The notes below the pieces were generated by a model. That model worked only from the letters and a program-made list of their open reading frames with translations, searched no databases and had not been told where the DNA came from. Position numbers and translations under genes: made by a program. 64,000 nt of DNA, from the NCBI GenBank assembly GCA_000091205.1, contig AP006493.2; one strand, 5' to 3'. This DNA comes from Cyanidioschyzon merolae (lineage: Eukaryota). Of this stretch, positions 2,010 to 61,904 are shown in pieces (the stretch's first letter is position 1; each line of letters begins with the position of its first letter).

Positions 2010-3054
2010 TTGGGGCGTTCGCGCGACAGAGCGCACAGGCCTCGTTGACGCAAGTGCACATTCGCGGTGGCGGCATCCATGAAGGCCGCCAGCGCGGCCT
2101 ACGAACTCCATGTGCTCTGCTCCAACAAGCGGTACACGTGCACCCGTCACACTGGAAATTCCGAGTCGTTACGCTCGAGAATTTCGACTTTTTGGAGCAC
2201 CATACTCGTTCATCCACTGCCACGGAACCGGTCCCAGGTGTGTAGATGCGGCGCCCCGGCCTTGCTGACTCGCTGAACCGTCCCATACCAGTGGCGTACC
2301 CCACGCGAGAATCCAAGCCTATCTCTCATGGCCACTGATATGTTTTCATCGAAAATCATCAGCGTTTCACGACGATGCCGCCGCTGAGTCCTAAAAGACT
2401 CGATCGACACTTCGCTTGACACAAAGCCGCTCACCGCTCCAAAAGCACCAACCGTTCCCAAATGTTGATCGCGGCATTCAGGGGTCGGAGCAGATGGTGC
2501 TGGCGCGCACGGTCGCTGGTGGAATCAAACCATGGCAAGTCGCTCGCCTTCGACTACCCAAGAATCTGTCCTTCGGTAACCCGTGCGGCACATAAAATCG
2601 TGCATCCATCTGTGTTTCATCCTCATCTTTTCTACATGTTTCAGCGTGAACCGGTGCTCATGGTGCGTGCGTGTTGTCCTCGACTCATCGTTGTGTATCC
2701 ACTGAATCGATTCCTGCAGTCACTCGATGCCAACGTCGAAGGATCAGTAGTACAGCGCGCCCGGCGCCATGGGCTATCACCAAAGGAAGCGACTTTTCTG
2801 TGATTTGTCTGTCTACAATGATTGAATTGATTGCCAAGTGCACGCATCGCGCCTCTATAGAGCCGAAACTGTTGGCGACCACAGCTGATGTCTTTCGCTC
2901 CTTCCAAAAATCGTCCGAATGAGCCGTTTGGGGCACTGGTGTACTCGTCGAACGAAGCGTTCACAGCATCCCGATCAGTTCAATACAATGGTCAGCATGT
3001 CGAAACGGACAAAGAAGCAGTCACTCGTCTTCTTGGTATACCTCCGGGTGTCCA

Positions 3055-3537
3055 TCAAGACTGACGTCCGGTGATGACCAACCCTGCAACGTTGAGCCGC
3101 TTCACCTGCTTTTCGTTCAGGCTTTTCGCTCCGTCCGCTGGATAGAGTCGTATGGTGACGTCCATGGCGCCTTTCCACCCGGGATCCGCGCCAGCCCCGA
3201 AGTGTTTCTCTGCATCTACTCTGAACGGCTGGAATCGAGTGTCGTCGCTCGACTGAGGCCTAGATCTCACGAAGCGCATGCCAACTGATATACTCTCTGC
3301 CTCTACCGCCACTGTGAACATCTCTCCATTTCCATGCTGCAAACGAGAAACCCTCGAGCGAGCCTCGTTAGTGCTCTTCGCGAAGCGGTTCGAATGCAGG
3401 ATGCGTAGTCGCAGAGACGAGCCGCAGCACATTGATAACGCCCTCAGTACACTATACGAGTGTCTGCCATGAAAGAATGGGTCATGGTCCGACATATACG
3501 AGCCGCGTCCTATCGAGGCTTGCGAATTCGTGAGCAC
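3055..3537 (-). CDS. Hypothetical protein, 160 aa, with no domain I recognise.
   Basis: The only support is a 160-codon open frame in GC-rich DNA. It could be spurious. Confidence 0.2.
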   Translation of the reverse strand: MLTNSQASIGRGSYMSDHDPFFHGRHSYSVLRALSMCCGSSLRLRILHSNRFAKSTNEARSRVSRLQHGNGEMFTVAVEAESISVGMRFVRSRPQSSDDTRFQPFRVDAEKHFGAGADPGWKGAMDVTIRLYPADGAKSLNEKQVKRLNVAGLVITGRQS

Positions 3538-6047
3538 AAAAATGCCCGTAAGGCACGTGCATTGCTCTGAAGGGCTCTGCTTATGAAAATCTAGCTACAC
3601 GAGATTCAAGAAAGCCGGGAATCACACTCAAAGAATCCTTTGGATACGACTTGGGTGGTCGTGGCGCTCTAAGCGACACGATGAGGCTGGGCGGTCTGCA
3701 GCGACTCCTGACCTCGCAGCAGCATCTCCTCCGAACTCGAACCAGATTCGATCGCTTCCGTCACCAGCTCGTCGTTTGCCTCTATCGAAACCGCAGGAAA
3801 TCCTTCCACCAGTCACCGTGTCTCGGGTCCAGTGTTTTGAGGGTATAACGCTCTTGGCGTGCGCCTCATAAAACGCTCCACAAGGACAGACACATGCGTT
3901 TGGTCATTGAGACTGGTTTCATTCTTAATTGCATATGGACCGCAGATTTCCTTCGATCCCGGATGGAGTGCGGCGATGCGTCAGGGTATTCGAGGAGGCG
4001 AATGTTGAAACCTCGTTTCCGATGATCAGGCTTTAGTGCTTCCTTTGCTCTCGCGTTAGGTGTCACGCGAAGGTATGATCGAGGAATACGGAAGGAACAT
4101 GGACAGCGGGCAGCCTTGCGTACATAGCTCGTACAAAGCGTTGGTTGACGAAGTGCGTCAACACAATCGAAGCTCAGCGAGCCTTCCTCGAGTAACAAGC
4201 GACGCGATCCCCAATGGCGACCTGCGTCTCACGTTTTGGAAGATTCCCCCAGTTGATGTATACTGGCAGGGACAGCCCGTTGACGGATTCAGAAGGATTT
4301 CTCAGCCTCGGCAATGCTTCCATCCTACAGGACCTGGTCCACCTGCCGGGAGGATCCTTTACTGATTCATCAGGTGGTTGCCTCTCCTCTTCGTTTACTT
4401 GCCTGGGCAGCATTCAAATGTTCGCGGCACTCTATATCAGGTTTTGCTGTGGATGCAGACACACTCCATGGAAGGTGAGGCTGAAACGCGCTCACTGTCT
4501 GTACGGATCCCCGATTCCTATAACGCAGCTGTTCGTCACTTCAAAGTCGCGTGCGTGCCGACGGACCAAAGCGCATTTCTCAGCGCTCTCGACCCGAGAC
4601 GCAGTAGTGCGGTGCAGAGCTGATGAAAGTAGAGAACGACTCGACGAGCAACTGTTTCATGGATGCGAGCGACTCGCCTAGAAATCTGTGAGCGTGAAAA
4701 TGGCGTTTGCCAATACAAAAGACGCCTTGGAATGGATGGAACTGTGGCGGATAGGCTCGAACGAAGAGCAGCTCAACGTCGCTGGAAGCCGTTTACATTT
4801 TCGCGGCTTTTGAGTGAATTTATAATAAACCAGGACAGGAGAATGCGTCAACGATCGATGAGCTGTTGAAAGACGCCGTCCGCTTGGCGAGTTGTTGGCG
4901 ACAACGTGACAGCATCGCTGCTAGAGCCATCGCTGCTAGAGCTGACGTTCACAGCATGCTCGCGTATCGCGTTTTACGATCAGTGTTTTGTCCCTCTTTG
5001 AATGCCCATAGGCAGGCCTGTCACTTCCCCTGAATCATGGTTCGTCGAATGTGACAAACCCGTGTTCATCGTGTAATTAGCGTTCAGATAAAAGCACGAA
5101 ACCCGTTTGGAGAGGTTCAGCGAGCGTCCGTCAACCATTGATGCCGGTGTTTTTCTTCATCCATCCAATGCCCTTCATCACCGTTCGTATCAACAGTACG
5201 GAAAATAAAACTTTTGTGGCTTTTTTCATTCCATTTCGTAGAGAACGTCTAGAATGGGAATGGAATGCCGAAGAAACATTTGTCCAGCTAAACTTGGCGA
5301 GGTTCTCTTTTGTTGCATGACGTTCACCATAAAATCTCCGAGGAGGGTGCTCCATCCACCTGCTGACCGCAGAATGACTGACTTGGATTATGAAGCTAGT
5401 TGTTTCATCAGGTACTGGAGGTGTTTTTACGTCTTTTCGCGAAGTTTCTTCAATCTCCCGGACACAATCCTTCAATGGAGTACTGGTGATGAAAACGTTC
5501 GCGCCGGAAAAAGTATTCCAGAATTCACTGTTATGAGTCTAGAGCCCCGGGCCTGCTATGTTGCATACGGCAAACGCTGTATCTTACGGGCGCTCGTAGT
5601 CGAGAGAACGTTCTTTGCGCTGTGGCAAACCATCGTATACGGCATCTTGTCTATGCAGTCTCTGTGGGTATATGTTCCAGACTCGAAAAGACGTGCCCGC
5701 ATAGCTTTTGCATCTATTGCTCCTTAATTCGGAGGGGGACGCTCCCACGCTGTATCCAATGCAGGTTCATTCTAGGCGTTTTATCGTGTCACGAGTCGGG
5801 GTACCAATGCAACTCCAGAGTCACGGTGTCGCGTTACACCCGGGTCATTCTTAAATCCAACAGGTCCTCTAATGATGGCGTATGCAGCTCGTTTCTGGGC
5901 CTCGCCGCATTGTCATCAACACCAGCTCCTTAGAGCTTTCCCTTAACTGCTCCCATTTTCTCTCTGTTAACTGCGGTTTTCCATCCGCCAGTCCGTCCGC
6001 CCTCTTCAGTTCCGTTACCAACAGCCGAAGAATGTTGATGGCAGCAC

Positions 6048-19665: not shown

Positions 19666-22600
19666 GTCGGTGCGTCAACGCATCGAGGCGGGGTGACGCT
19701 GGCGCGCCGTGCCGACTCACGTCATCTAGGGGCGATTCGCAAGCATGAGACTGACTCCCTCAGAGGCAGCGTGTGGAGGCGATGAGGTTAACCTGCCCTG
19801 GCGTCCGCGAAGGTCACGTTGTTCTCTCGAACCCCGATGGGATGAGCGATCCCGTACCGCAGAAAAGGGCTAGGTATTTCTCGTTGCAGCAGAGCCGCTT
19901 GATGAGCGGTGAAATCCACAAGCAGGGTGCGCGTCGGACACGGGGAGAGACGGTGAGGGAAACGCTCCCGAGTGTTTTCGGGAGACGCACTGATACGCGA
20001 TCCTTCGATGCTTGAGCAGCGACAGTGAAACCTGGTGGGAATTGCGTTTTCCAGATACAGCATCTGTCAGCAGCATGGCACCTGCAAAGCATGTGTGCGT
20101 TTTCTCTGCTTCTGGTGGAGATCGCATTACGCGACGCGTCCCATACGCCGCACCATTGCCGATGCGTGCTGATGCGTTGACGTGCTGCGTGCCGGCGCGT
20201 GACGCATGTTGACTTTCCCGCCTAACTGAGCGTTCCTCTCAGGAATGCTGCTGTGAAGATGAAGAACGGTGTCTCAGTGATGTCTTGTTCCCTTGATGAT
20301 AGTGGCTCAGACGGGGCGCTGCGGCAGTCGATACGGAGAGGGGCGTCCCCGTCTAGGAACGGCAAGCGTCCGATGACCCGTTTCTGTGCAGTCATAGAAA
20401 GTCATGGAAAATTCGTATCATTTACCAGTTCCCGTGAAAATCGTTGACACTACACAGACACAGCGTTTCATCTTTGCGTAATTGCTAAACTTTCTGTAAC
20501 TGTGCCTTGTTCTCTGCGGCAATTTTTTTAAATTGACAAAACGTTTACATCGGCCAGCGTTCTCCGATTATGCGCGTTTTCCTTTCTTTTTGGGGTTTTT
20601 CAGTGCGCGGCAAAGTATCCATCAAACTCCCTACTTCCAAGTTACATAACCTATGCTTCTTCTGGGATATTCTGGTCATTCCATACGTTCTATCGTGTGT
20701 GCCTACTGCCTGCCGAAAGCGACAGCAATGGCGCCTGTAGCGCCGGTGCGGTCGCTGCACGGAGACAGAACGGCGTTGCCGTACCACACAGAGAGGGCAT
20801 CGGCTCGCGGTTCTGTCCGGGAATGCAATGCCGTGTGTGTCGCGGTCACTGATTCCCTTTCATTGCAAGTCTTTGGTACTTCGGCACAACGCTCACGCTG
20901 AGAATTAGACGATGCTCTGGAAAGCTGACTCGATTCGTAGCCGCTGAACGCTCGGGGCCACGAGAATCTACCAGATGTCAATTGAGACGTTCGCGTTTCA
21001 GTGCGGAACGTGCATGCGCGCAATATCGTGGACGCAATCACACGACAGCAGGCCGCTCGCCCCCGGTGGCGTCGCCAGTCGACGTTCGGTCAGCTTGTCG
21101 TACACCATCGCATACATCAGAATCTGTTTCACGCAATTGTTCTCTATGTGTTTCAGCGCGCATCCGTGCTCGTGATTCGTACATGTAAAATTGAACTCTT
21201 CCATGGGCATTTCACAGTGTTTATTTACGTCTTTCGTGGGACGCTGTCGCTGGAGAACGCTTGCAGCTTGTGCGCAACACAGCAGCACGCGCACCCGCCG
21301 TTGGCTACCACCCATCGCAGCGAACGATTCGTCATTTCCTTTTTTGCAACTCCTTGAACAAGCTGTAGAGTCCAAGCTTCCCGCCTCTGTATGAACAGAA
21401 CTATTGGCGGCGCCAGCGCGGTCTCATGCGCTCTCTGGGGCATCGCATCGTGTGCATAAGTACTCGCGTTTCTGGGACAACTAGCTGAGGCAAGAACGCC
21501 CACAGAAAGCGCGCCAAGAAGCACTCGCCATTTGCCCACACGGTCTCGCTCGTTGGGGCTGGTTTGAAATTTTTCTGGGCATCGTAGCTGTAGATACCCG
21601 AATCACTGACGTGCCGCGGAGACTCGTCCCCGGATTCTAAGAGGCGTCTGTGCACACCTCCGATCCAACGATTAGGCCGAAGTGCATCTTCGGCATCGGA
21701 CATTTGTTGTATTGCCGCTTACAGATTGGATTGAATCGTTTCAATGGAAAGTGGACAAATGGTAGCCCTGCGTCGGTGACTCCTATAAACGGGTGCTCGA
21801 CGAGATGCGTCAAAGCGAGAAAAGGGTGGCGAAGGTATACAACGACTCGTCTGAGAACAGTTTGAAAAACAGCTTCTGTGACCGGGATTCGAACAACTTC
21901 TCCATGCATCCGCGAACGTTAAAATCGAGTTCGACTACAGAGAAGATGCGTTCTACTGGATGAAACCAGTGAGCATAGGCTGACACGAGGAACAGCTCAA
22001 CGCCAACCTCAGTTGCGTAGACTTGTTCCTGAGCCTTTGCGTTGCAGAAAGCAGCTCTGTCTAAGAGCAGGCCAGAAGAATGAGATAAGGAGAAGTCACC
22101 GTGACTGCAGCGATGAGGCATGAGCTGTTGAACGACCGTGTCGATTTGGCGATTTCGAGCCAGCTCCAAGATTCAATTGCCGCGAGTGGTGGTGTCTTTC
22201 GGAATACTCGCTGATCTCTTCTCTCCGAATAAAAATTCGCCCATCGTTGAGTATCCATATGCAGGTCTAGCATTTCTCCTCAACAAAATCTCATCCAGTG
22301 CGACAAACACCTAGCTCTCGTGTAATGAGCGTTCGCATGGCAGTATGGAATCCATTGGTCGTTGGTCAGCGAACATCTATCTGTCAATGAAGCACACGGT
22401 TTTCTTTGACCATCCAATGCTCTTCATCGTCGTTCGAATCAAAGGCACGGAAACTTCACATCCCGTCACGTCTTTGATAGTACTTCATAGGAAACGTATG
22501 GAGTGGAATGGATTACCCAGGAGACAGTCGTGGAGATAGACGATGATGAATTTTGTTCAGGGTGCACTAGGTTCCGGGAAAAGACTACGAATCAGTGATT

Positions 22601-23950: not shown

Positions 23951-24556
23951 ATGCGTGGCTATGTTCACTGCATAGCACGGCACTGTGCAAGCAAATTTGC
24001 TCTACCACAAGCGACATTCGTGCACGTCTATTCTGAATACATCCGCCGATAATTTACGAGACTGACTGCGCTGGTCGTTGTCTTGGGCGCACGCGCTCCA
24101 TAGTCGTAGACTCTAACGGAACGGCATGCTCTGGCATCCGCACGATGTTCGAAGGCGCGAACGTTCAGGTGACGCGACGTTGTTTCATGGGCGTGTCTCT
24201 GGGATAGCCATGGATCGCTTCATATAGCATGACAAGTCGTTGTGTGCTGCTGCCGCGGTGCGACGGGAGAGCAGCCCCATGCAGCGCACGGCAGAGCGAA
24301 CTTCGCATGCGACTCCCCGCCGGGTCATCGGCAGCGCTGGCGCATCCAGAGGTATCTGTTGATATTCCTGGATTTTACAGGAGTAAGCGATTGACGAAAT
24401 AGAGTCTCTTCGCTGATCAATGGAAACGCTCGCGCATCCATGGGCATCTGGTCTGCTTCATCGATTCTTCATTATAGGCATGTCAGACAAGAATGGAACG
24501 GGCAGCTTTGCTGACTCGGGCGAAGAACGTAAAGTAACGGTCTCTTCCGATCGTGA

Positions 24557-25838
24557 TGAATATAGGCCTTTTGTGGGATTTCTCTGCGACGGATAACCTG
24601 TCCGTACGCTAAACCTCCAGCATAAAATATGCGAATATCTGTTCTGCCTTCATCTCCATCTTCGCAAGCAGATGAATACTGATGGCAGCGTTCGTGTCCC
24701 GATTGCGCCGCTTCCCGCCTTTGTCGACGCTATTCATGCAGAGGCGCAAGTTGCGATCCGAGCTTCGCTTGCAATTTTCACTGTCTTTCTGTGCAGCCTC
24801 CAGACGCACTTCGCAGCGTTCATACACGAATGCAGACAGATGTGCCAGCGAGTGTCCACAGCAGCTCCTCGTCTGGCGGTCGGTCTTCCTTGGATGACCG
24901 TTTGAATCATCGCTCGGTACCAGCCATTGGCGGTTGCAGGAGGCATCCTGCGATACGCTGCTCCAAATCCGTGTCCGGTGCGGTGCACGACCAGTGAGGG
25001 TTGCTTCCGACTGGTCTAACCCCGATAAGCACACCGCTCCATTCCACAGAGGATATATGGAACGCCTCGTGCTCCACGGGGAAACGTGCAGCTGGAGCGA
25101 AATCTACGACGGAGAACACTTGGAGAGATTTCGCTTCGCCTCACTCATTCTTGTACAAACCGGTGATGCAGTTTTCACTCGAAGGAATCTCTGCGATGAC
25201 TGAAGACAGAGCCCAGCACTCTTGTCCATGCGAATACAAGCGACGGGAGCCTCTGCGAGCTAATGACGTGAGAGCTACGAGTGTACTGTCGAATTACGAA
25301 CCCTCGTCGACGGCTGCAAAGCCTGGAGCATACGTCGTTCGAGCGGAATCGAGCATCGGACGTGAAGAGTTCAGTGTGGCTTCCGCACACGCTCGGGAAC
25401 AAATCGTCAACGCGCGACATCGCGTACGTTACCTCAGCAGTCCAGCAGCGCGAATAGCTGCGCCCCAGTCCACTCTTGCATCCGAAAAATCGAACACATG
25501 AACCGTGCGCGATGTGCGGACACCTCGCCAACGGAAAGCAGAAGCGTCGAGGCTCGTACCTCTGAGTCACGTAATGATCTCACTTGTTGTACGAACCGTT
25601 GTTTGAGTGCGTCTCGTACGCCTTTGATTCCGATACCGTTGCGAGTTCCAGCGCCGATGCGTCGAAAGAGCCACGCTGATCAAGAGACACCCGAGAATCC
25701 CAAAACGAATCATGAAACCGGAATCCATGAATCCCGCACACGCAACGTCGAATCTATACACCTATGAAAATGGTTCGGAAAATACATCGAAGTCGAGGAA
25801 GAATGGAAGCGGTTCAGTGTTCCATGTTGATTCAACAC
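24557..25838. repeat. Dispersed ~1.28-kb repeat, copy 1. It is ~98-99% identical to the copy at 39386..40667, in direct orientation.
   Basis: The two copies sit at a constant offset of 14,829 bp with no indels. The ORFs 24672..24905, 25001..25501 and 25498..25767 are near-identical to 39501..39734, 39830..40330 and 40327..40596. The flanks diverge. Confidence 0.9.
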
Positions 25839-25930
25839 TTGTATACAAGACCTGAACTGGATCTGAGGTCTTGGACAATCGCTAGGGCTCATCGCCTCGC
25901 CGCGGCCGACGACCGTGCTTCATCCCGCAG

Positions 25931-31623: not shown

Positions 31624-32599
31624 AGCGAAAAGAGCGCACCCGGAACGCTCAACAGCACCACGCCCACTCCACCACGTCTCGCGCTGTGTCCAGTCGGAAG
31701 GTGCTTATTCTGGCAGATGCCGCGGATTTCAGCACTGCTGATCTCTGGCGAGGCGGGAGTAACGCGCGCGCTGTTGCCAGCTGCCGCCAGCAGCACCATC
31801 GAGGCGCGATCTTTCAGTGTATGCCCGGCGATTGACAAACGCCGCGCCGTTTTCTTTCGATGACAAAACGTTTAGTTGGACCATGGATCCCTGATTGCGG
31901 GGTGGATAATTGTTTTCGGGAACTCGTCGACCACGATGCACCCTACATTCAATTTCCATTACTTGTATTTCCTTTTTCCGATGTATTCGTGGTTTTGTAG
32001 GTTGTATTGTTCCAAGAGTGTCTGCTTTGAGCAGCAGCGATGGCAGCTATACCGTTGGTGCGGATGCAGCACGGAGACAGAACGGCGTTGCCATACCACT
32101 GCGGGCGTCGGCTCGAGGCGTGGTTTAATCGACACGGGGTCGGAGTACATGACAAGTCTGGGAGCCAGGAAGCTGCACATACAGGCGTGCTATCTGCGGG
32201 TGCGCGAAGCGATTTGCTGGGAGATAACTGCAGCATGGGCTGCGCCCGGACGCAGCCTAACTGCTCCGAGTCCCAGAATAAACAGCATTGCGGATGCGTT
32301 GCTCAGATATCACTACAATGCCTGCCACTGGGGGAAGCATGAAGCATTAGTCTGGGAGACTCGTCCGGCACGCTGGACCTTACTCTATTACGGAAACTTT
32401 TCCCCTTTTAACGTTGATCGTAGCGAAGAAAAGAAATTTTTATATCATTGCTTGGTAATGGTGGGTCTCTGCTCTTTGTTCTATGTAGCGCGCTCGATAC
32501 GCGCATCTCCATATCTGGCAGGTATGGAACACGACGTGCATCTCGCTGCTAAAAGAGGAACGAGATCCTGACCGTTCGTGTGTAGCTCTAGCTTCCAAG

Positions 32600-35050
32600 T
32601 TGTACGGGGGTTCAAGTCATAGCTGATTATATTCTTTCGATTCAATTGTGTTTCAACCCTCAAGCAAGTATGTTCAAGTGATTTTCCACGGTTTGCATCG
32701 GACGCGTATGAAATGAGATCGTTTTCAAAACAAAAAAGGAAGGAAATGGGAATTGAAGCGGAGGATCCCGGAGGCGCATTGTCACCGGCTGGCGGAAAAA
32801 AAACGAAAAACAGAGCCCAACGTAGAGACATAAGACAAGACGAAGAAGCAGAAGGCAGAGGCACGACGCCAAAGGCCGCAAGAAAGACGACAGTACGACG
32901 AGATGGTGGTGAAAGCCGGTCTTCTTAAACATACCAAGGATCCGTACAAAAAAAGTTGCAAGAGGGCATCGGAAACCGTGTCGCAACCTACTCCACCAGT
33001 GTTTTTAAGGCTTCTCCAGGAATTATGCATTTCATGAGGGAGATGTATCGCGACGTGACGGACATCAACACAGTTGAGGTTCCCGAAGAATCGTTCGACA
33101 CGACCCTTATTCGCCACCTGACGCTTAGCATAGGGGAAACGTCGAGGAGAAATGAGCGAGTAAATGACCTCCACGAATATCACGCCGAATACCGCTTCAA
33201 CGATACTCGATGCAATGGTGACGCGGATATTTACGAATACAGTGCGATGACGTACCTCACGAGTCTGGAGAACAATATGATCATGATCTTGGAACGTTTC
33301 AAGTTATGCTCCTTCTTTGCGCTGTGTCCGGGCCATTCTCGCAAAGGGATATGGAGCATCATCAATCGCGCCACGAATGATTGTAGGAATCAACAGGAGA
33401 TCGAATTCGTTGACAAGAAGGCATCACGTAGGAGTAGGAATGAAGCTTCTGTGATCCGCGCGGCCATTCAAGAGCACCGTGCGGTCTTCGGGCTGCTCAA
33501 TCCGGAAGAAAAGTTATCAGAGATGAAAAAGAGGATGTTATCCACTCATTCTACGGTATTTCGTCTACCTGAACCGAGAACTCGAACGCAAGGCGGAGAT
33601 GGAGCTGGGTATGCGGAAAAATGCAGAGTCGTAGAAACGAAAGGCTGCGCTTCTGGGGAAGCGCTTCGATTTCGTTACGATATGCAACAGCAAGTCACAT
33701 TTTGTGGCAATCAACTCCAGCGTCCTTCATGGCATCATGAGCGAGATCTGTCCGGAGTTCAATGTCAGGAAGACAGAGATCATCGGCGTAAAACCGGGAC
33801 ACGTACAGGAAGAATATCTTCGAGTTCAAACGTCTCGAAATGAGCAAGCAAAAAGTATTTACTGGGATGATCAGAACCGATGGAGTATCCATATGTGCTC
33901 AGTATCCGCGCCTGAGGACGGATCGTCCTATTGTGTCTTTGATATCGCCCTCGGCGAAGCGTGAAGAAAACAACCACGGGGATCCTGTGACGCAGGAGGT
34001 GCAGGAGAACGACTTTGTCGTTGGCGCTGACCCCGGCAACACGAATATCGTCACAATCGCAGTACCCAAGAGTGCGGAAGATGGCATTGACGGCATCTTG
34101 CGTCAGAAAAACATGCATCTTTTAAAGTTCTCGATAGCGAGATACTATCGGGAATCGGGAATAATGAAAGCGAGGAAACAAAATAAGAAATGAAATTCAG
34201 GAATGAAGGCGCACCTGGAAGCGATCAGCAAAGTGACTTGCCGTGGAGCGAGCTTTCGATCCGTCCTGGAGTTCATGGAAGCTCGCGTTGCTCGTGACGA
34301 GTAGCTTTGAAAAGAGTATACAAAGCCCAGGTGGGCTCGTCAGTGTACGAACCTGCACTCTGGGAAACAGCGCGCATTCGCCGAATTGTTCACTGAGTTG
34401 AGCGCCCTCGAGGACCACTAGAGTCAGCGGCTCGTACTAGCATACCGTGCAGGGCGCTGGGCGTCCGAAAAGGGGACATATAAGCCCCATCGACAAGAGC
34501 GTACAGGAAGTTCGCTCGCAGTTTTTTCACGATACCGATACATGAGTTCCGAATATCGTATGTGCACCACGAGCTAATGTGCACACTTCAAAGGGTCGAG
34601 ATGGAAATCTCCCAGCGGATCCCGGAGGATATAGAACAGTATGGAGCGCTGGAGGAACAGCAAATGGAAAGAAGGGCGCAAGTTCGAGGACTCCTTGCAT
34701 TGGTGAGTACAATGAACGCGAAGAAACAGATGGAGTTCGTAAACCGGGACTTGAGCGCCGCCATCAATATCAGGAGACGTACCGTGCTGGACAAGAGACC
34801 CGCGGCGCTGACGCAAGCCAACCTTGTAGGGCAGCCCCTCAAGGTCGAATCACATAAAGACAAGTTGAAACCAGCAGTAGGTGGCCGGTCCAAAACGACT
34901 GAGAGGCGTCTGCACGTGGGCGTAGGGATATCCACGCTATCGGCGTTATGTAGGTACGCATGTATGCCTGGTTTGCCGGCGGCATCGATGCTCTGGTAAT
35001 CTTCCAGGAACGCAGCTTCTAACCAAATGCCCCCTGGTGCGAACATGCCA
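32600..35050 (+). mobile_element. AT-richer ~2.4-kb island containing a degraded TnpB/Fanzor-like (OMEGA-type RuvC nuclease) element.
   Basis: Base composition is visibly lower in GC than the surrounding ~58% GC DNA. ORF fragments in all three plus-strand frames carry RuvC-I-like and RuvC-III-like motifs (see the pseudogene entry at 32956..34999). I could not discern terminal repeats. Confidence 0.5.
32956..34999 (+). pseudogene. Fragmented TnpB/Fanzor-like RNA-guided-endonuclease homolog. Pieces lie in frames 1 (32956..33843), 2 (33704..33964), 0 (33840..34193) and 2 (34562..34999), with about 290 bp of the gap (34194..34480) holding no long ORF in any frame and no zinc finger.
   Basis: Frame 0 reads [24 protein letters not shown], which fits the RuvC-I G-x-D-x-G-x-x-N...SDG motif. 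It is followed by a basic helix ([30 protein letters not shown]). Frame 2 at the 3' end reads FVNRDLSAAINIRRR, which fits the RuvC-III motif D-x-N-A-A-x-N-I. A WED-like sequence [15 protein letters not shown] lies just upstream in another frame. At least two frameshifts and stop codons are therefore needed to join the pieces. The expected CxxC...CxxC zinc finger before RuvC-III is absent. Confidence 0.5.
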
Positions 35051-35549
35051 GCGATAAGCGCGGGAGAGGGTTTACATCCTCGCGATACGCACATACATCC
35101 CATGCGTTTGGGTCTAGTCTTCGCCTCAAAAACAGATGCTTGATCGATACAATGCATCCCCGCGTATTGCGCCTCCAGCTGACACCCTCCGGGGACTGGG
35201 CGCTCGGACGATGCGTTTCTCGGGGCATCATCGCGAGAAATGCGCATCATTGCTGGACGCTGCGTCCGATCTGGTAATGCATGCGTGCCGACGCACCTGT
35301 TTACCCGTCGTCGCATGCGTGCACGCATGCGCCTCGCGGGAAAGAATGACACGCACGCAAGTGCACGCATCAACCCGAGCGTCTCGATGCGTTGTCTCTC
35401 TCTGGAATGACGCAGCGTCGTGTAGCGGCCCTGATGACATCGGCGCAGGGTACGCTGCTTGCACGCTACAGATATAGCAGACTACGCACAGAGACTGAAC
35501 AGTAGTCTTTACGAAGCAGACGAACGTACGATCCTCTGCGCCCCGCCGC

Positions 35550-38695: not shown

Positions 38696-38850
38696 GCAAG
38701 CGTTTCCGATTCACCTTAGTAGCTGCCCAGCGGAACGCTGTCGCACAGGGCACCTTTGTGACGAACGGATAATGCGTCGGTGTCCAGTGCAGCGTCGGAC
38801 AGGCGCCCATCGAAGCATGCGATGCGTTAGCGTACTGCTCGCCGGCCGGC

Positions 38851-39332
38851 AAGACGTTGTTGTCGGGAGCCGACAACCCGCAGGTCAGCGGAACATCGTT
38901 TAACGGCAATCATGAGGGGATGGAGTGGAGCGGGTTGTTGTCGGGAGCCGACAACCCGCAGGTCAGCGGAACATCGCTTAGCGGCAATCATGAGGGAATG
39001 GAGTGGAGAGACGTTGTTGTCGGGAGCCGACAACCCGCAGGTCAGCGGAACATCGTTTAACGGCAATCATGAGGGGATGGAGTGGAGCGGGTTGTTGTCG
39101 GGAGCCGACAACCCGCAGGTCAGCGGAACATCGCTTAGCGGCAATCATGAGGGAATGGAGTGGAGAGACGTTGTTGTCGGGAGCCGACAACCCGCAGGTC
39201 AGCGGAACATCGTTTAACGGCAATCATGAGGGGATGGAGTGGAGAGACGTTGTTGTCGGGAGCCGACAACCCGCAGGTCAGCGGAACATCGTTTAACGGC
39301 AATCATGAGGGGATGGAGTGGAGCGGGTTGTT
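38851..39332. repeat. Minisatellite of ~6 tandem copies of a 78/79-bp unit. Two unit variants alternate, giving a ~157-bp higher-order repeat. Each unit contains a perfect 8-bp-stem, 3-nt-loop inverted repeat.
   Basis: The unit cgacaacccgcaggtcagcgg recurs at 38871, 38949, 39028, 39106, 39185 and 39264. Each unit contains gttgtcgg-gag-ccgacaac. Variant A reads ...atcgtttaacggcaatcatgaggggatggagtggagcgggttg, and variant B reads ...atcgcttagcggcaatcatgagggaatggagtggagagacgttg. The small ORFs across it on both strands are repeat artefacts. Confidence 0.95.
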
Positions 39333-39385
39333 TTCAGATTAATGAGGTTTACGTTGTATATAGATTGGGCTGCACTCTAACGCTA

Positions 39386-40667
39386 TCAATATAGGCCTTT
39401 TGTGGGATTTCTCTGCGACGGATAACCTGTCCGTACGCTAAACCTCCAGCATAAAATATGCGGATATCTGTTCTGCCTTCATCTCCATCTTCGCAAGCAG
39501 ATGAATACTGATGGCAGCGTTCGTGTCCCGATTGCGCCGCTTCCCGCCTTTGTCGACGCTATTCATGCAGAGGCGCAAGTTGCGATCCGAGCTTCGCTTG
39601 CAATTTTCACTGTCTTTCTATGCAGCCTCCAGACGCACTTCGCAACGTTCATGCACGAATGCAGACAGGTGTGCCAGCGAGTGTCCACAGCAGCTCCTCG
39701 TCTGGCGGTCGCTCTTCCTTGGATGACCGTTTGAATCATCGCTCGGTACCAGCCATTGGCGGTTGCAGGAGGCATCCTGCGATACGCTGCTCCAAATCCG
39801 TGTCCGGTGCGGTGCACGACCAGTGAGGGTTGCTTCCGACTGGTCTAACCCCGATAAGCACACCGCTCCATTCCACAGAGGATATATGGAACGCCTCGTG
39901 CTCCACGGGGAAACGTGCAGCTGGAGCGAAATCTACGACGGAGAACACTTGGAGAGATTTCGCTTCGCCTAACTCATTCTTGCACAAACCGGTGATGCAG
40001 TTTTCACTCGAAGGAATCTCTGCGATGACTGAAGACAGAGCCCAGCACTCTTGTCCATGCGAATACAAGCGACGGGAGCCTCTGCGAGCTAATCACGTGA
40101 GAGCTACGAGTGTACTGTCGAATTACGAACCCTCGTCGACGACTGCAACGCCTGGAGCATACGTCGTTCGAGCGGAATCGAGCATCGGACGTGAAGAGTT
40201 CAGTGTGGCTTCCGCACACGCTCGGGAACAAATCGTCAACGCGCGACATCGCGTACGTTACCTCAGCAGTCCAGCAGCGCGAATAGCTGCGCCCCAGTCC
40301 ACTCTTGCATCCGAAAAATCGAACACATGAACCGTGCGCGATGTGCGGACACCTCGCCAACGGAAAGCAGAAGCGTCGAGGCTCGTACCTCTGAGTCGCG
40401 TAATGATCTCACTTGTTGTACGAACCGTTGTTTGAGCGCGTCGCGTACGCCTTTGATTCCGATACCGTTGCGAGTTCCAGCGCCGATGCGTCGAAAGAGC
40501 CACGCTGATCAAGAGACACCCGAGAATCCCAAAACGAATCATGAAACCGGAATCCATGAATCCCGCACACGCAACGTCGAATCTATACACCTATGAAAAT
40601 GGTTCGGAAAATACATCGAAGTCGAGGAAGAATGGAAGCGGTTCAGTGTTCCATGTTGATTCAACAT
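39386..40667. repeat. Dispersed ~1.28-kb repeat, copy 2. It directly abuts the 3' end of the minisatellite.
   Basis: It is near-identical to 24557..25838, with the same ORFs carrying a few substitutions. It begins about 55 bp after the last minisatellite unit. Confidence 0.9.
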
Positions 40668-48158: not shown

Positions 48159-51100
48159 CGCGCTGTACGCGGCGGATACGCGTGTTGTACGAGTCGAAGC
48201 GTCCGCAGGTAGACGTCTTATCGAGAGCGCTGCCTTGTACCAGCGGGCGCTTTTGATGAAGCACGCGACCTTGGGTAGAGCGGCGGAGCTGCTGTAGCTG
48301 CCCGGGCCTTTGTCCTCCAGAGACAGCGTAGTGTGCGCGCAGGCTTGCGTGTCACGCTATGGTCCTCGACTCGAGCACCGTTGTGCTGCTTTCGAATCGG
48401 GCTCTGGTGGACGCTACGCCGTTCACTGACCTAAACAGCTAGCTACCTCGTCGGAAACCTGCTCGAATACGAGCGCTGACACTGCCAACTTGGAGGAGCC
48501 TGGTCCCCAGCTGACTCGAGGAGTCGCGGGCGACGTCCAAGGCACGTCTCTGTCAACTGTTTAGTCCGTTAAACGACGAGCCCGAACTTTCGTGAAGAGC
48601 CCTCGCGTTTTTTCTTGTCAACGAGCTTGGACGACAGATCTGGGGTACCTGAGCGCCCAGACCATGAGCAGAGCTGTACCTGCAGCGCCTCTGGCTACCA
48701 GCGGTTGACAGTGCAGCGAAAGCGAGTATCCAATGCCGTGCCGTACCGCACCGCACCGCACCGTTCTTTACCGAGTAGTGTAGTGCAGTGCTCTCTGACG
48801 CTCAGAGGAGAAGACTTTAGCGAAACTCACTGCTGATGCCGACGCTATGGTGTTCTGGGAAAGATGGTCAGGTCGTTGAGTTCGGTATGAGACGCGCTAG
48901 GCACTCGCGAAACTTTACTGAGAGCGTTCTGTGTTGCGGAGAGACCTGGTTCCAGCGAAAAGACCTCCGCGCTAGTCGAAATGGCTGGACTCGCGGGTGC
49001 ATCAAGGGAACACGATTTCAGAAGACGGTCGACTAAGAGACTATTTACCTGCACAGGTTTCTTTCGTTTGTGTATGCTTTCAGAGAACTGCAGCTTGCCT
49101 GCATCGCCACGTTTTCCAGGACACAGCGTTTTCAATTCGAGCAGCGAGTTTGAGAGTACTTGCACCAGCGAACCTTTTCTCTGTTTCTATTTTTCTCGCA
49201 GGAATCGAAGAATGGGACGCCACTTTCCCAGAGTGAAGAAGGTTTCCGGAAAGAGTTTTATTCTGCCACTTGAAGCTTGCGAAAAAACGGCAATACTTCC
49301 ATGATTCTGTCATTCTGAGGTCAGCGAGTGGATGGACCACCCTTTCCGTAGTCCCGTGTTCTGAGCATCATGCACCGGCATCAGAACTTTTTACATGTTA
49401 GCGACACGACTGTATCCTCGAAACCCCATTCCACATCACATGTTCTCGTAGAAAGATTATGGAGCATGCCACAGGGTCTGAAGTTTCTACACTCATGCTA
49501 CGAACCGCGGTTTGGAGACACGGAGGCACAATACGTCCGCCTCTGTTGAGGATTGTGATGCATTGACTACCCCGCTATCGATGACGTATGAAACGCGAAT
49601 GCTTCCAACAGCAGCGACGGGTGCTCGTCTTGCTCAGTCAAACTTCCTTCAGATGCAATGGTAGACCTGGATATGGGTACTCAAAAAAAGGGAAAACCGC
49701 TGTTTGTAAAGGAAAGACACGCGAAAATGCCGAGAATATCATCCGTCGCAGCCATTCCATCGCATAGGCACCTCTGAATCGCCAACTAGATAGGATCCTT
49801 CAAGACATCATCCTTCGTTGAAGCATTCTTCGCGGCTTCTGCCTCGCACATACCTCTGTCCTGCTGTTGGACAACGTCGCCGTCCATCGCGAGAAAAAAC
49901 CCGGTCAAGGCATACGCAGCTGTGATTGGCGTTGAGCTGCTGATAGCACCAGCCTATGCTCTTTGGTTCAATTGAGTCGAAGGCGTCTCGTCGGTTGTCG
50001 AACGCAAGGTCAACGCGCACGGTCCAATAGACGAGTCGTTCGCATTCGCGTAAACGAATGGTGCGGGACGCCACCAGGGACCGTATAGCGTCGTACGCGA
50101 GGAGTTCTCGCCTAGCTTCTATCGCCCTGAAGCACCTCGGTAAGGAAACGTTCGTGAGCGTTACGGACGGAAGGCTGCACGCTGTGAATATTCCTATGGA
50201 ATTTTTGGATCGGCCCGACGTGCGACAGCACACTTGATGCAGGAAGTGAAGATGCGATGCAGTAGGGGGGTAGGACCAGGGATTGGCGCAGGTGCTTCCC
50301 AGAATAACTTGACACGTCACCACGCGACGTCGAAGATCGAAAAACCTAGAATGCATATGCGAAGTGCCATCAGACCAGGTTCAAGGATGCAAAGCGTATG
50401 CAGGTGAATCCGGAACGCTTCCCAATGCGCACTCTCTAAGCATTGTACGCGGTGGACCCTCATTATCGTATCGCGACAGAGAGGGCGACTGTCTGCAGGG
50501 ATCCCCAGCTTATCGATGGAGGCAAGCGACGGCCTGGTGATGTCTAAAGAGCTCGCGGTAGTACTGAGTTCTGGTTCGTATCGTCTGTGCTCATAGGGTT
50601 GCTCTCGACCTCGGACCGCCGCACATTGCATCCAAAGGACAGTGGAAACGTGATACCCACGTTTCGTGGATCTCGCGCAAATACGTTTTCCTGAACAAGG
50701 CTCCTCGACGCGATACAGACTTCCTCTCTCGATCCGAGCGTCGTATCCTCCTCAAATGACTATGCGATGTGGCCCATATTTCGGGAGATTAAGGCCCATT
50801 ATACCGCCGTAGGCGATTACCTACTGCACTGTGGAGCTTCCTCGATGGGGTACGGCCTGTCTCTGGGTATAACAATGCTGTGCTCGACCGAATTCGTCAA
50901 ATGCGGTAGCGAAGCGCGTTTATGGACGCTCGTATACTGAAAAGTATCGGAATGAATTGTACACGGACGATGAATACCAGAGAAATCTCAGTCTGAATAC
51001 AGTTCGTAAAACCAAGGCCTGACTAAAACAACAAGACTCAATTTTCAGCGGTAAGTGCAGGGAAAGACGTGGTGATACGCGTGGATCCCTGGTTGAAGAG

Positions 51101-52478
51101 CATCATGGCCGTCGTGGTACCTCTATATCAAGAGTGCGGTTCCAAAGACCCGGCAGACAAACAGATCAAGCTCCTCGACTTGTTCTGAGTTCAAACTGAT
51201 CGAGATTCGGGCATCACAGACGCCGTGGTGCATACCAACAACTAGAGTAAAGACTTGGCATTCATCTGGGCGGGGTCAGACCCGTGTCGAGCATCGGACG
51301 ATGCTTTGTGCGCTTCATTGCAAGAGTACGTGAGCGTGCATACGGTTCATGCAGACCATCCCTAGCACAAGTACACCAGACCGCCTTGAGGTCGCCAGCG
51401 GTTTCCGTTCTACGGAGGCATGAAGCGTGCTTTCGCGAACTTGTTCAATCAATTGGAAAACAAAATTACCGACGATTTGCTTCGTCTGGCGGCGGCTTCT
51501 CGCCCTTGACATGCTGCACTCCTGATCCTTCGACGAGAGCGTAGAGCGAATGCAGGACTCGATGCCCTACGTGTCCCGTCGAGGCATCACGACGACGTCA
51601 ACGCATCACGAGCACGGCTGCACGCTGAAACTGATGGGCGAGAACAGCATGAGAAAGAGACGGATACACGAGCTGGTGCACGTTGAGCAAGCCGAACGTC
51701 AGCTGGCGAGGTTATCGAATGTAAGCAGCTTGCTATGGCGTGATTCTACCAGCGACCGTGCGCGCAAGCACTTTCTGCCCCTGGACTTGAACACATCCCT
51801 CAACGTCTAGAAAAGCGTCGCGCTGCTGGAGCGTCCGGCGTTCTAGTGTCCAGCGAGCTTTTCAGACACGGAATCGTTTCGTCGTTTCTATAGACATTGT
51901 GCTGAAATGCCGGCGACTAGAAATGGAATAAACCAGTGTTCAGAAGAGAGGACACTGGCTTTCCGTATTGAGTAAGGCATTGGTGGGCCATGGTCCAGCG
52001 ATCGAGAAATGCTGAAGCGTGGTATACTTACTCCGGGAACATTTCTCCAAGGCAATTGATGAATGTTCATGATCTCCCGCGATTCGGTATTACTGAGTAG
52101 AGCATGCCCACGCGCTGGCGCTGTAGCTAGGTGCCTGTAACGAAGAGAGCGCCGTCGCTCCCGTTATCTTTGCCAGCGCTCCAGATCACCTGATACCCCT
52201 GATTTCCTGCATACCAATCTACAAAACGTCTCTTTTGGCGCAGAAACCTATTCGACTATATCGAGGTTTTGGTGTGGAAGCAAAACGTATCCGCGTCCAG
52301 AACTGACGCATGGACATCGATTGGGTTCCAAGCGTACGCGCAACACATGGACAGCGTTTCGTTGCTCAGGCACGATACGAATCCAAAACCGCGTACGCAT
52401 ACCGAGGATATCTTGGGGATGCGCGCTGAGGCAGCGGCTGCACTTAATGCACTCGGCACACATAACAGGAGGCTTCAA

Positions 52479-59425: not shown

Positions 59426-61904
59426 GAACCCTCTATCGGGTCTCGGTGTCTGTCAGCAGCGCTCGTGACGGGTACACACGTTGAAGCGTACGCTCCTCGA
59501 GGCTGAGGTCCCTCGCACACAGAACTAAAAAACGCTACCAATGGAGTTCCGGAACTGTTCCGCGGTCGACGGACGCTTGCGAAGCGCTAACCAAGTTCTT
59601 AAAGTTGAAAATGAACCAGCATGAGCGCTGTGAAACAACGGGAAGCCCACTGGCCAGCCCTGGACTCGAACGAAGCCTAAACGCTACCGCAAGCACGTCG
59701 ATGCAGTTCGATCGCTACAGAAGTCGCTCCCGTTAACCCCAAACTCGACGGTTACTGCTATCCAGCTGGACTTTCTTGCGTTGGCGCAACGTGAGCTGCC
59801 TCATGAAGCGCAGCGTTTTGATTGGAACAGTCATTTCGGGAACTCTTGGATCAGCGTCCGCTTCTTGTTTGTTTTTTTTGCTCGCTGGTATTCGATTACA
59901 GGAATGTATCTCTATAGATTGGAGAAAAAGTTGCGAGAATACTTAACGCTGTTATGGCGAGCGCATGGAAAGCGGCATGATTGGAACAAGTCCGGTATGC
60001 TAGGGTGACCATGGGGCTGAACCACGCTTCGTAATGCCCTAATCCTGAAAGTGATGCGCCCTGAACAGCGCTTGTACGACACAATCTACATCAAGCTGCC
60101 CTTATCAATCCATCGCATATCACAAGTTCACTAAGAAATACGATCAAAGAAGGCACAGGATGTGAAGTTTCCGTTCCGTTGATGCAAACGTCGATGAAGA
60201 GCCGCGGGTTGTCGACGAATCAAGCACGATTGTATGAAATACCGTCGCGCGTTGAACAGTACTCTGTCGATTTCGTCATGAGACAGGAACGCTTATTACA
60301 GAAGGAACAGCTTCCGTTTCACTCGATGGGACTTTATCCAGAAGAAATGGTAGACATGGACATGGGTACTCAAAGAGCGGCAGCACGCTGCTCGAAGAGA
60401 CGAGGCAATCGAGGATTCCGACGACATCTGCACGAGCTGCGATGCGATCGTGTGGTCGCCTCCAAGTCGCCAAAAGAACAGGATTGATCGAGGCCTTGTC
60501 GTTCCTCGAAGAACCCCTCGTGGCATGCCCTTCCCATATTCTTCCGTCTAGCGCTTAGACATCGTCGCGTTCCATCACTAAAAAACGATAAGAGAGCAAG
60601 CGACTGAGATTGACGCTGAGAAGCTCTGTGCCAGCGTATGCTCTCAGTTTCAGTGCAGTTGAAGGCGGCTTTACTGTTGTCTAACACGATTTCCATACGC
60701 ACTGACCCATAACGAGGTCTTTCGCGTCCGTAACACCGCTCTTTGACAACGTGTTCTTCGGCAGGTTTTCCTCTACATTCACCGCCCGTAAATTGCTTTG
60801 TTGCTTGACTGGACGTGGGCGGAAGGCAACGGAGAGGCGTGCTGGGGTTCATTGGCCTCTTGGCGATAGATTAGGTGATGGTAATGTACTTGACGAATCG
60901 TAGATACGTATGTGGAAAAATCGAGTTTCAGTGCCATCGTGCATTCGTATGCGTCAGAGTCGCTGGGAAAACAAACGTAGAGAGAGCCTAGCGGCCGTAA
61001 ATCTTCGATCCCGCCACATAAGTAAAGACGCGAAGATTGAGCTAGTCTCTGAGAGCAAGTATGAGACGTTCAAGCTACCTCACGACGATACTTGGCGGAG
61101 ATCGTGCAAGGTGCCTGGGTCACGCGGTGGAGTAAATACGAAATCTCATGGACGATAAAGACTGGTAGAACCTCAAGATGTATGCACTCTGTGAGACCTC
61201 GGAGAGTGCCCAGCAACCAGGCACATTTTCAACCGATCAACAAGACGAGGAAAATCGAGCGCATTGCATAGCACTCAGTGTAGGCATTGCGCTGAAATGC
61301 TCCAGACATGCGATTCAAATGAGTTGCTAGAGCAGAGCCGCCACAGGCTTCGCGCCTCAAGCAGGACACTAGTAAAGAACGGTTCAGCAATCTAGAACAG
61401 CTCGAGCGTCGCGTACCTACTCCGGAAAGGGTTTCTTATGCGATAAGCAGTCGGCCATGGTGCTCCACGATTCTATACGACTGAATGTAGCAGGGAAGCA
61501 CATGCTACCAGGGAAAGCTCCAAAGTCCAATGAAACGATCATTACGAGCGCTGCCGCGTTCGCTCAGAACATTTCCCAAACGTGGTTCGAATGAGCTGCC
61601 GCTCCCCCGTAGCTGACCCCAACAAGCCGTCCTCAGTTGCCGCGAGAGCAGGACCTCGCGCTCACGCAGATATATGTATGACAATCAAGATGAAGATGGA
61701 GCCTCTGAACCTGTCCAATTCAGACGCTCGTGAGAAATTCCAAGTCAGATGATAGCAAAGCGTTTTCCTTGGGATATGCAGCCGGTTCCATCATAGCACC
61801 AGCCGCTTCTTGCTCGCGAAACCGTGTAATCGTTGTTGAAGATACTGGTACACGCTAGATTGCGGCAGTTTGTATATACAAGTTCATACCAGTGCGCATG
61901 CTCA

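Follow-up and report, generated by a model that had tools for sequence, protein, structure and literature searches.

A 64,000-nucleotide stretch of Cyanidioschyzon merolae contig AP006493.2 (the window) contains two intergenic regions that share blocks of identical noncoding sequence. What is the shared element, and does it serve the genes beside which it lies? Both loci are very probably copies of a single ~290-bp interspersed repeat, named E, which corresponds to the 3' tail of a C. merolae retrotransposon of the long interspersed nuclear element (LINE) type. The finding is real but ordinary: the two loci are two copies of a known interspersed-repeat system.

Extent of the shared element

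The 23-mer CACGGAGACAGAACGGCGTTGCC occurs at two exact sites in the 64-kb window (20758-20780 and 32070-32092), both on the plus strand. No third window site was found at up to three mismatches, and none is expected from 100 shuffles. The 14-mer TGACAAAACGTTTA is likewise present in both copies (20534-20547 and 31861-31874). The similarity described in the original prediction is genuine, but its bipartite architecture is not. The homology revealed by MAFFT and nhmmer forms one continuous stretch of ~290 bp (20521-20810 versus 31848-32118), in which the two blocks are the best-conserved parts; the element looks bipartite because conservation is uneven within a single unit. The central part of the two copies exhibits ~60% identity and contains a T-rich insertion in copy A. 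Copy B begins with a degenerate T-run (31848-31859) and ends in ...GGCTCGAGG at position 32118. The features of the two copies are as follows.

20521-20810, minus strand: copy A, stand-alone type I E element (probable LINE 3' tail of ~290 nt; nhmmer score 297.6, E=2e-89)
20509-20523, unstranded: left copy GTTCTCTGCGGCAAT of the putative target-site duplication of copy A, abutting the T-run
20523-20532: complement of the A-rich tail of copy A
20534-20547, minus strand: 14-mer of copy A, reading TAAACGTTTTGTCA, a conserved block just 5' of the poly(A) tail
20758-20780, minus strand: 23-mer block of copy A, ~30-50 nt from the retroposon 5' end
20810, minus strand: putative retroposon 5' end of copy A (CCGCGAGCC)
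20810-20824, unstranded: right copy GTTCTGTCCGGGAAT of the duplication, pairing with the left copy
31848-32118, minus strand: copy B, type II E element fused to a Fanzor-bearing body (nhmmer score 183.6, E=1e-54)
31861-31874, minus strand: 14-mer of copy B
32070-32092, minus strand: 23-mer of copy B

E is a dispersed family with two types

Further copies of E were obtained from hot-spring metagenome contigs, which are ~99% identical to C. merolae 10D where they overlap the window; L-numbers below denote such sequence stretches outside the window. A 20-mer from the conserved block matched 78 metagenome stretches on contigs of up to 150 kb, which represent 29 loci, those orthologous to copies A and B among them. 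An nhmmer profile added copies that lack the 20-mer and raised the total to 40 distinct E copies, only two of which lie in the window. E is therefore a noncoding multi-copy family, as the original prediction had allowed, and an explanation by local duplication only was rejected by the metagenome scan. The 20-mer has no match in IMG/VR or in the GTDB prokaryotic genomes, and a viral or prokaryotic origin was rejected on that ground.

The copies reside at ~40 unrelated loci and have sharp edges on both sides, with a T-run followed by CATTGACAAAACGTTTAC on the left and ...GGGCGTCGGCTCGAGG on the right. They fall into two types. Type I comprises 29 copies with ~79% mutual identity, including copy A, whose nearest relatives are 88% identical to it. 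Type II comprises 11 copies with ~69% mutual identity, including copy B. Identity between the types is ~62%. Two type II arrangements are unusual: a copy at L020 2087-2379 carries a (TGGA)n microsatellite expansion, and two head-to-head copies at L034 619-1275 are separated by just ~105 nt of Fanzor-body sequence.

Retroposon signatures of E

Read on the minus strand, E has the form 5'-CCTCGAGCC...TGTCAATG-A(n)-3', or more fully 5'-CCTCGAGCCGACGCCC...GGCAACGCCGTTCTGTCTCCGTG...TAAACGTTTTGTCAATG-A(7-10)-3'. All aligned copies begin on the left with a T-run of 7-10 nt, intact or decayed, which represents an A-run of the minus strand; it is present at one end only. Direct duplications of 9-15 nt flank stand-alone type I copies immediately outside the T-run and the ...GAGG end. 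Against mismatched-flank controls, the duplications score above the 95th percentile in 12 of the 39 copies and above the 99th in eight, all of these being stand-alone type I copies. Four examples are given.

L056: GATACTCTTTCGA
L016: TCGAGTGTGTGGG
L012: ACGCGCAGGC
L063: GTTTC[A/C]GGGCGAT

An A/T run at one end combined with duplications of variable length is the signature of target-primed reverse transcription, and E is to be read on the minus strand for this reason.

In one copy (L038 1614-1916) the last 14 nt are GCGTGCGCTCGTTG instead of GCGTCGGCTCGAGG and are identical to the left-flank sequence next to the duplication, which makes this a microhomology-type 5' junction.

Linkage of E to a LINE-type retrotransposon

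In minus-strand orientation, E is preceded at L024, L067 and L031 by a ~735-nt LINE 3' untranslated region (UTR), designated X, and by an open reading frame (ORF) with the reverse transcriptase motifs GLRQGDRASPRLFNIFINDL and LLLADDVVLLA. The L024 ORF (12778-13797, minus strand) matches the Pfam family RVT_1 (E=6.5e-11), and E is located ~735 nt downstream in the same orientation. Homologues of the LINE ORF include C. merolae 10D proteins annotated as 'retroelement, alive', of which BAM80536 and BAM80398 are examples of such annotated loci.

The extent of X differs from copy to copy (263, 269, 465, 560 and >1838 nt), and X is joined to E in each. Because X varies in length yet always adjoins E, these copies constitute a 5'-truncation series. 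The 263-nt form of L031 is flanked, together with its E, by a duplication of its own (ATTCTCTTT[G/C]CG), and this unit is inserted into the T-run of another copy. In an internally deleted form, 'Y' (L081), an N-terminal ORF segment (…NRKTPGVDGI…) is joined directly to E. Stand-alone tails and LINE-linked tails do not segregate by sequence identity, so the stand-alone copies look like repeated products of the LINE and not like a separate master lineage.

On the minus strand, E thus very probably makes up the terminal stretch of the 3' UTR in a C. merolae non-LTR (non-long terminal repeat, LINE-type) retrotransposon, and it would have spread through an RNA intermediate. Copy A would have been inserted by target-primed reverse transcription, with its A-rich run and a decayed target-site duplication of ~15 bp as the traces, either through very severe 5' truncation at a favored position or as a tail-only copy resembling a short interspersed nuclear element (SINE). 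Copy B represents the older, diverged type II form and is the fixed outer end of a ~3.1-kb Fanzor-bearing repeat, upstream of and opposite to its ORF. The conserved blocks are most likely cis-acting sequences for the propagation of the element itself, for example in reverse transcriptase recognition, 3'-end formation or internal initiation. They are not read as regulatory sequences for ALG5, Sec61 or their neighbors.

Several points weigh against this interpretation. The duplication around copy A matches at only 12 of 15 positions, with a score of 7.5 compared to 7.0 at the 95th percentile of the mismatched-flank controls. All stand-alone copies start at one nucleotide, whereas random 5' truncation predicts otherwise; a reverse transcriptase stop at the adjacent hairpin and an internal start site are both possible origins of the common 5' end. 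The additional copies and the LINE-linked copies come from metagenome contigs and not from the 10D assembly. The label 'SINE' in its strict sense is unproven, since no promoter of the RNA polymerase III (Pol III) type and no similarity to tRNA, 5S or 7SL RNA was found; ARAGORN detected no tRNA in the window, and an Rfam scan of copy A returned only a chance match (E=2.6). Finally, the conservation of the 20-mer block is inflated because copies were found via the exact 20-mer. Among the 11 copies that were not selected in this way, conservation of the 23-mer block is 79%, compared to 66% over the element as a whole; the block comes 44th among 314 windows, behind TCTCGGATATTCTGGTCGTT (86%), the 14-mer (85%) and CGTTTCATACGTCCTATC (84%). 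The perfect identity of the 23-mer between copies A and B is partly luck.

Absence of E from the syntenic Cyanidiococcus region

The window has a GC content of ~55% and intronless genes. Four of the proteins it encodes exactly match C. merolae 10D entries on an 852,849-bp chromosome, namely Sec61-alpha (BAM80558), UBC9 (BAM80559), ALG5 (BAM80562) and MSH4 (BAM80563). Copy A resides in the Sec61-UBC9 spacer and copy B in the ALG5-MSH4 spacer; the four entries have near-consecutive accessions, and none falls in either spacer. As had been noted from the sequence, copy B is close to ALG5, 225 bp upstream of its ATG (31623, minus strand), and a Fanzor-like region follows directly.

In Cyanidiococcus yangmingshanensis the genes follow one another in the same order (Sec61, UBC9, YlmH-like, Snf7, ALG5 and MSH4), with shorter spacers. 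The ALG5-MSH4 spacer is 725 bp in Cyanidiococcus versus 3.9 kb in the C. merolae window, and the Sec61-UBC9 spacer is 1.7 kb versus 4.1 kb. E was not found in the syntenic 16.5 kb of C. yangmingshanensis, even at E<=10. Both copies are lineage-specific insertions, given that the syntenic Cyanidiococcus spacers lack E.

These data bear on the proposal that duplication placed E ahead of two host genes as a cis-regulatory module, whether promoter, enhancer or 5' UTR. In its favor, the two copies in the window are intergenic, copy B is flanked by the divergent ALG5 gene and Fanzor ORF, and the 3.2-kb repeats of C. merolae are reported to be transcribed (PMC1955436). The type II element may well carry the promoter of the Fanzor ORF, as it is always upstream of that ORF. 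A host regulatory role is nonetheless very unlikely. The Cyanidiococcus spacers do without E; the ~40 copies occupy unrelated contexts and are bounded by duplications; the copies end in an A/T run and form the 3' end of elements that encode reverse transcriptase; and the genes downstream of the two window copies are unrelated, being a decayed Fanzor relative on the opposite strand at copy A and the Fanzor body at copy B. The promoter, enhancer or UTR function suggested in the original prediction is thus not supported. For annotation, masking both loci as repeats is appropriate, and they should not be searched for regulatory or RNA function.

A different sequence is a candidate for regulation in this region. 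A 34-nt block upstream of MSH4 (window 35322-35355; L089 14644-14677) exhibits 88% identity between C. merolae and Cyanidiococcus. As the sole aligning part of the two compared intergenic regions, it may be a genuine cis-regulatory element.

Coding potential and RNA structure

The ~65-bp block that includes the 23-mer could open a conserved short peptide or an upstream ORF (MA..VR..HGDRTALPYH), with an ATG in both window copies and 20 codons open in most copies. Across the family, the first codon is ATG in only 8 of 40 copies, ATA in 17 and GTA in nine, and several copies contain in-frame stops. A 4-nt indel separates copies A and B after codon 20, and all three frames are open over the short stretch. 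The original prediction had already considered a shared peptide unsupported, and a coding block can be virtually dismissed.

A small structured RNA, either a novel noncoding RNA family or the guide (omega) RNA of the neighboring Fanzor, is highly improbable. One possible 5-bp stem (GCGAC/GTCGC) involves alignment columns 234-238 and 266-270, where 83.5% of cells pair and GC-to-AU changes occur, and a hairpin with compensatory changes is positioned just outside E. However, the stem is weak and was picked by eye, and its covariation reflects one or two events because the exchange follows the split between types I and II. The covariation check on the aligned copies yielded only this stem. RNAalifold applied to the 40-copy alignment, on both strands and in sub-regions, predicted 0 pairs on the plus strand and a fold of -4.4 kcal/mol on the minus strand. 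Apart from the chance match of copy A, Rfam searches were empty both at the gathering threshold and with a cutoff of E<=10, and ARAGORN reported nothing.

Known guide RNAs of Fanzor and TnpB systems are encoded at the 3' end of the ORF. E resembles such omega RNA regions in that a conserved noncoding block with a sharp edge, beside variable sequence, adjoins a Fanzor-like gene. It differs from them in its location 5' of the ORF, in its lack of a conserved fold, in its presence far from Fanzor genes and in its boundaries, which consist of an A-run and duplications.

Copy B and the Fanzor-bearing repeat

All 11 type II copies run on at the ...GAGG end, from the same nucleotide, into a common body of ~2.8 kb. 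The body contains a TnpB/Fanzor-like ORF on the strand opposite to the retroposon reading, and the type II element is always upstream of the ORF. Two features adjoin copy B.

32119-32175, minus strand: junction module of ~55 nt (CGTGGTTtaATCGAC..GTCGG hairpin), also present beside E in the LINE 3' UTR (X)
32119-34960, plus strand: body of the ~3.1-kb Fanzor-bearing repeat, CMe-1A-like (72-76% identity over 2-2.8 kb to L017, L020, L023 and L082)

A further weak collinear match to the LINE 3' UTR is located ~210-275 nt into the body (nhmmer E=2.3e-4). In the window, the Fanzor-like frame is broken into ORF pieces (32929-33840, 33792-34190 and 34484-34996), and P0056, a metagenomic homologue, aligns to 33599-34921 in tblastn with 57-59% identity. 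The L017 Fanzor-like ORF contains RuvC-like motifs, including NRDFNAAINI. The Fanzor-like ORFs, including ten ORF fragments of window repeats, have no Pfam match, and phmmer and profile searches with the protein retrieved no PDB match. An AlphaFold model built from 21 close paralogues has a pLDDT of 31 and does not confirm the fold.

Shorter copies of the repeat are anchored at the E end and extend over 340-655 nt. Among the short forms is a ~650-bp unit (L031 1301-1968 versus window 31850-32502), which comprises the ORF-upstream side and corresponds to the published short element TE-N2_CMe. Other fragments instead retain the far end of the body. Neither the full-length units of E and Fanzor (window, L017, L020 and L090) nor the short units have a convincing duplication; a candidate for an E-Fanzor unit in L031 is ambiguous because the homology may extend ~20 nt further.

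The fusion raises the alternative that E is the left-end module of a Fanzor DNA transposon, that the stand-alone copies are comparable to miniature inverted-repeat transposable elements and that the link to the LINE is secondary, for example through capture. The junction at the same nucleotide in 11 of 11 type II copies and the far-end-anchored fragments accord with such an element, and Fanzors are otherwise known only from DNA transposons (PMC13565253). The alternative is decidedly unlikely on other features of the family. Terminal inverted repeats are absent, the ends TTTTTTCATTGACAAAACG and GGGCGTCGGCTCGAGG not being complementary; the duplication length varies from 9 to 15 bp, and the A/T run occurs at one end only. 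Moreover, three independent copies that encode reverse transcriptase, together with truncated and deleted derivatives, end in E, and a unit of X and E has its own duplication.

If E is a LINE tail, the C. merolae Fanzor1 repeat (CMe-1A, 150-253 copies) could itself be a LINE-dependent retroposon and not a DNA transposon, a proposal that is doubtful but open to argument. The Fanzor gene would be carried antisense on a LINE 3' tail of ~300-550 nt, consisting of the type II element and the adjacent module resembling the 3' UTR, and the unit would be copied by the LINE machinery from an antisense transcript. TE-N2_CMe, a short element that corresponds to the 5' end of CMe-1A, would be its 5'-truncated or tail-only form. 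On the side upstream of the ORF, the unit stops exactly where the tail homologue has its poly(A) complement, with unrelated flanks outside. The 340-655-nt copies anchored at the E end and the absence of terminal inverted repeats point in the same direction, as do the next ~55 nt and, weakly, the stretch at ~210-275 nt, which are collinear with the LINE 3' UTR. The four full-length units, however, have no duplication around them, and the far-end-anchored fragments and the type I poly(A) ends that abut Fanzor fragments also argue against retroposition. A single old fusion followed by spread at the DNA level is the alternative. If the proposal holds, the repeat would be the first retroelement-borne Fanzor, as no such Fanzor is known (PMC13565253), and it raises the question of whether the gene for an RNA-guided nuclease reached ~5% of a very compact genome on a retrotransposon tail.

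Such abutting recurs at several loci, with the type I tail joined by its poly(A) end to a fragment of the Fanzor body (L082 2471-5271, L031 9450-12275, L011 5898-8597, L072 2672-3110 and L064 11890-12319). The fragments start internally, ~450-520 nt or 2645 nt into the body, and reach its far end on the LINE strand. These junctions may stem from template switching that yielded chimeric retrocopies, or from insertions that removed target sequence. The sequence AGAACGGCGTT, the core of the 23-mer, is found just beyond the far end of one Fanzor subfamily (L011, L082 and L051), which may be chance. Six metagenome contigs carrying ALG5 (L003 and L006-L010) stop no more than ~170 bp from the copy B T-run (compared with window 31680-31878); these assemblies break at the copy B repeat.

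Comparison with known repeat systems

LINE 3' tails are shared by tail-only and SINE-like retroposons, as in partners of the UnaL2/UnaSINE1 type and in severely 5'-truncated L1 copies. E resembles these systems in having one 3' tail common to an element that encodes reverse transcriptase and to short noncoding copies, with an A-rich 3' end, duplications of variable length and a 5'-truncation series. Microhomology at the 5' junction (L038 and L016) is a further likeness. Unlike partners of the UnaSINE1 type, E has no head derived from tRNA, 5S or 7SL RNA and no recognizable Pol III boxes. It also departs from LINE-tail-sharing systems in that its stand-alone copies share one fixed 5' end and yet form no lineage apart from the LINE-linked tails.

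Two published descriptions of C. merolae repeats correspond to the element at copy B. CMe-1A is a Fanzor1 family ~3 kb in length, whose ~150 copies share ~80% identity with the consensus (Bao & Jurka 2013, PMC3627910). It lacks terminal inverted repeats, its duplications were left undetermined and its class was given as unknown; its first (5') 635 bp constitute TE-N2_CMe, with ~70 copies (PMC3627910). Nozaki et al. (2007, PMC1955436) reported 253 copies of a novel 3.2-kb interspersed repeat that carries a WSV486-like ORF, together with 26 non-LTR retrotransposons.

The copy B repeat agrees with these families in organism, length (~3-3.2 kb), TnpB/Fanzor-like ORF and likeness between copies (~75-80%), and with CMe-1A and TE-N2_CMe also in the lack of terminal inverted repeats and detectable duplications and in a short element made of the first ~635-650 bp. 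Its identification with CMe-1A and TE-N2_CMe is based on organism, size, copy number and architecture, not on Repbase consensus sequences. In contrast to the published accounts, the outer ~290 bp are homologous to the poly(A)-proximal tail of a LINE in reverse orientation, and this homology probably extends to ~550 bp. A class (LINE 3' tail with poly(A) and duplications) is thereby assigned to part of two families that were left unclassified (PMC3627910, PMC1955436).

Other repeats in the window

Four decayed copies of another repeat family are present at 2600-5300 (plus strand), 20900-22600 (minus strand), 49300-51900 (plus strand) and 60000-60400. The family is a distant Fanzor relative, and no E module lies beside any of its copies. 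The metagenomic Fanzor P0056 matches it in tblastn at 51066-51825 (E=2.9e-12) and 21240-20977 (E=7e-4). The far end of one decayed copy is ~150 bp from copy A; an assignment of this neighboring repeat to the LINE body was rejected in favor of the decayed Fanzor relative.

A direct duplication of 1.28 kb (24556-25840 and 39385-40666) has 98-99% identity between its copies, which are 14.8 kb apart. A tandem array with a period of ~79 nt (38777-39335), reported as six overlapping 166-nt copies, just precedes the second copy of this duplication.

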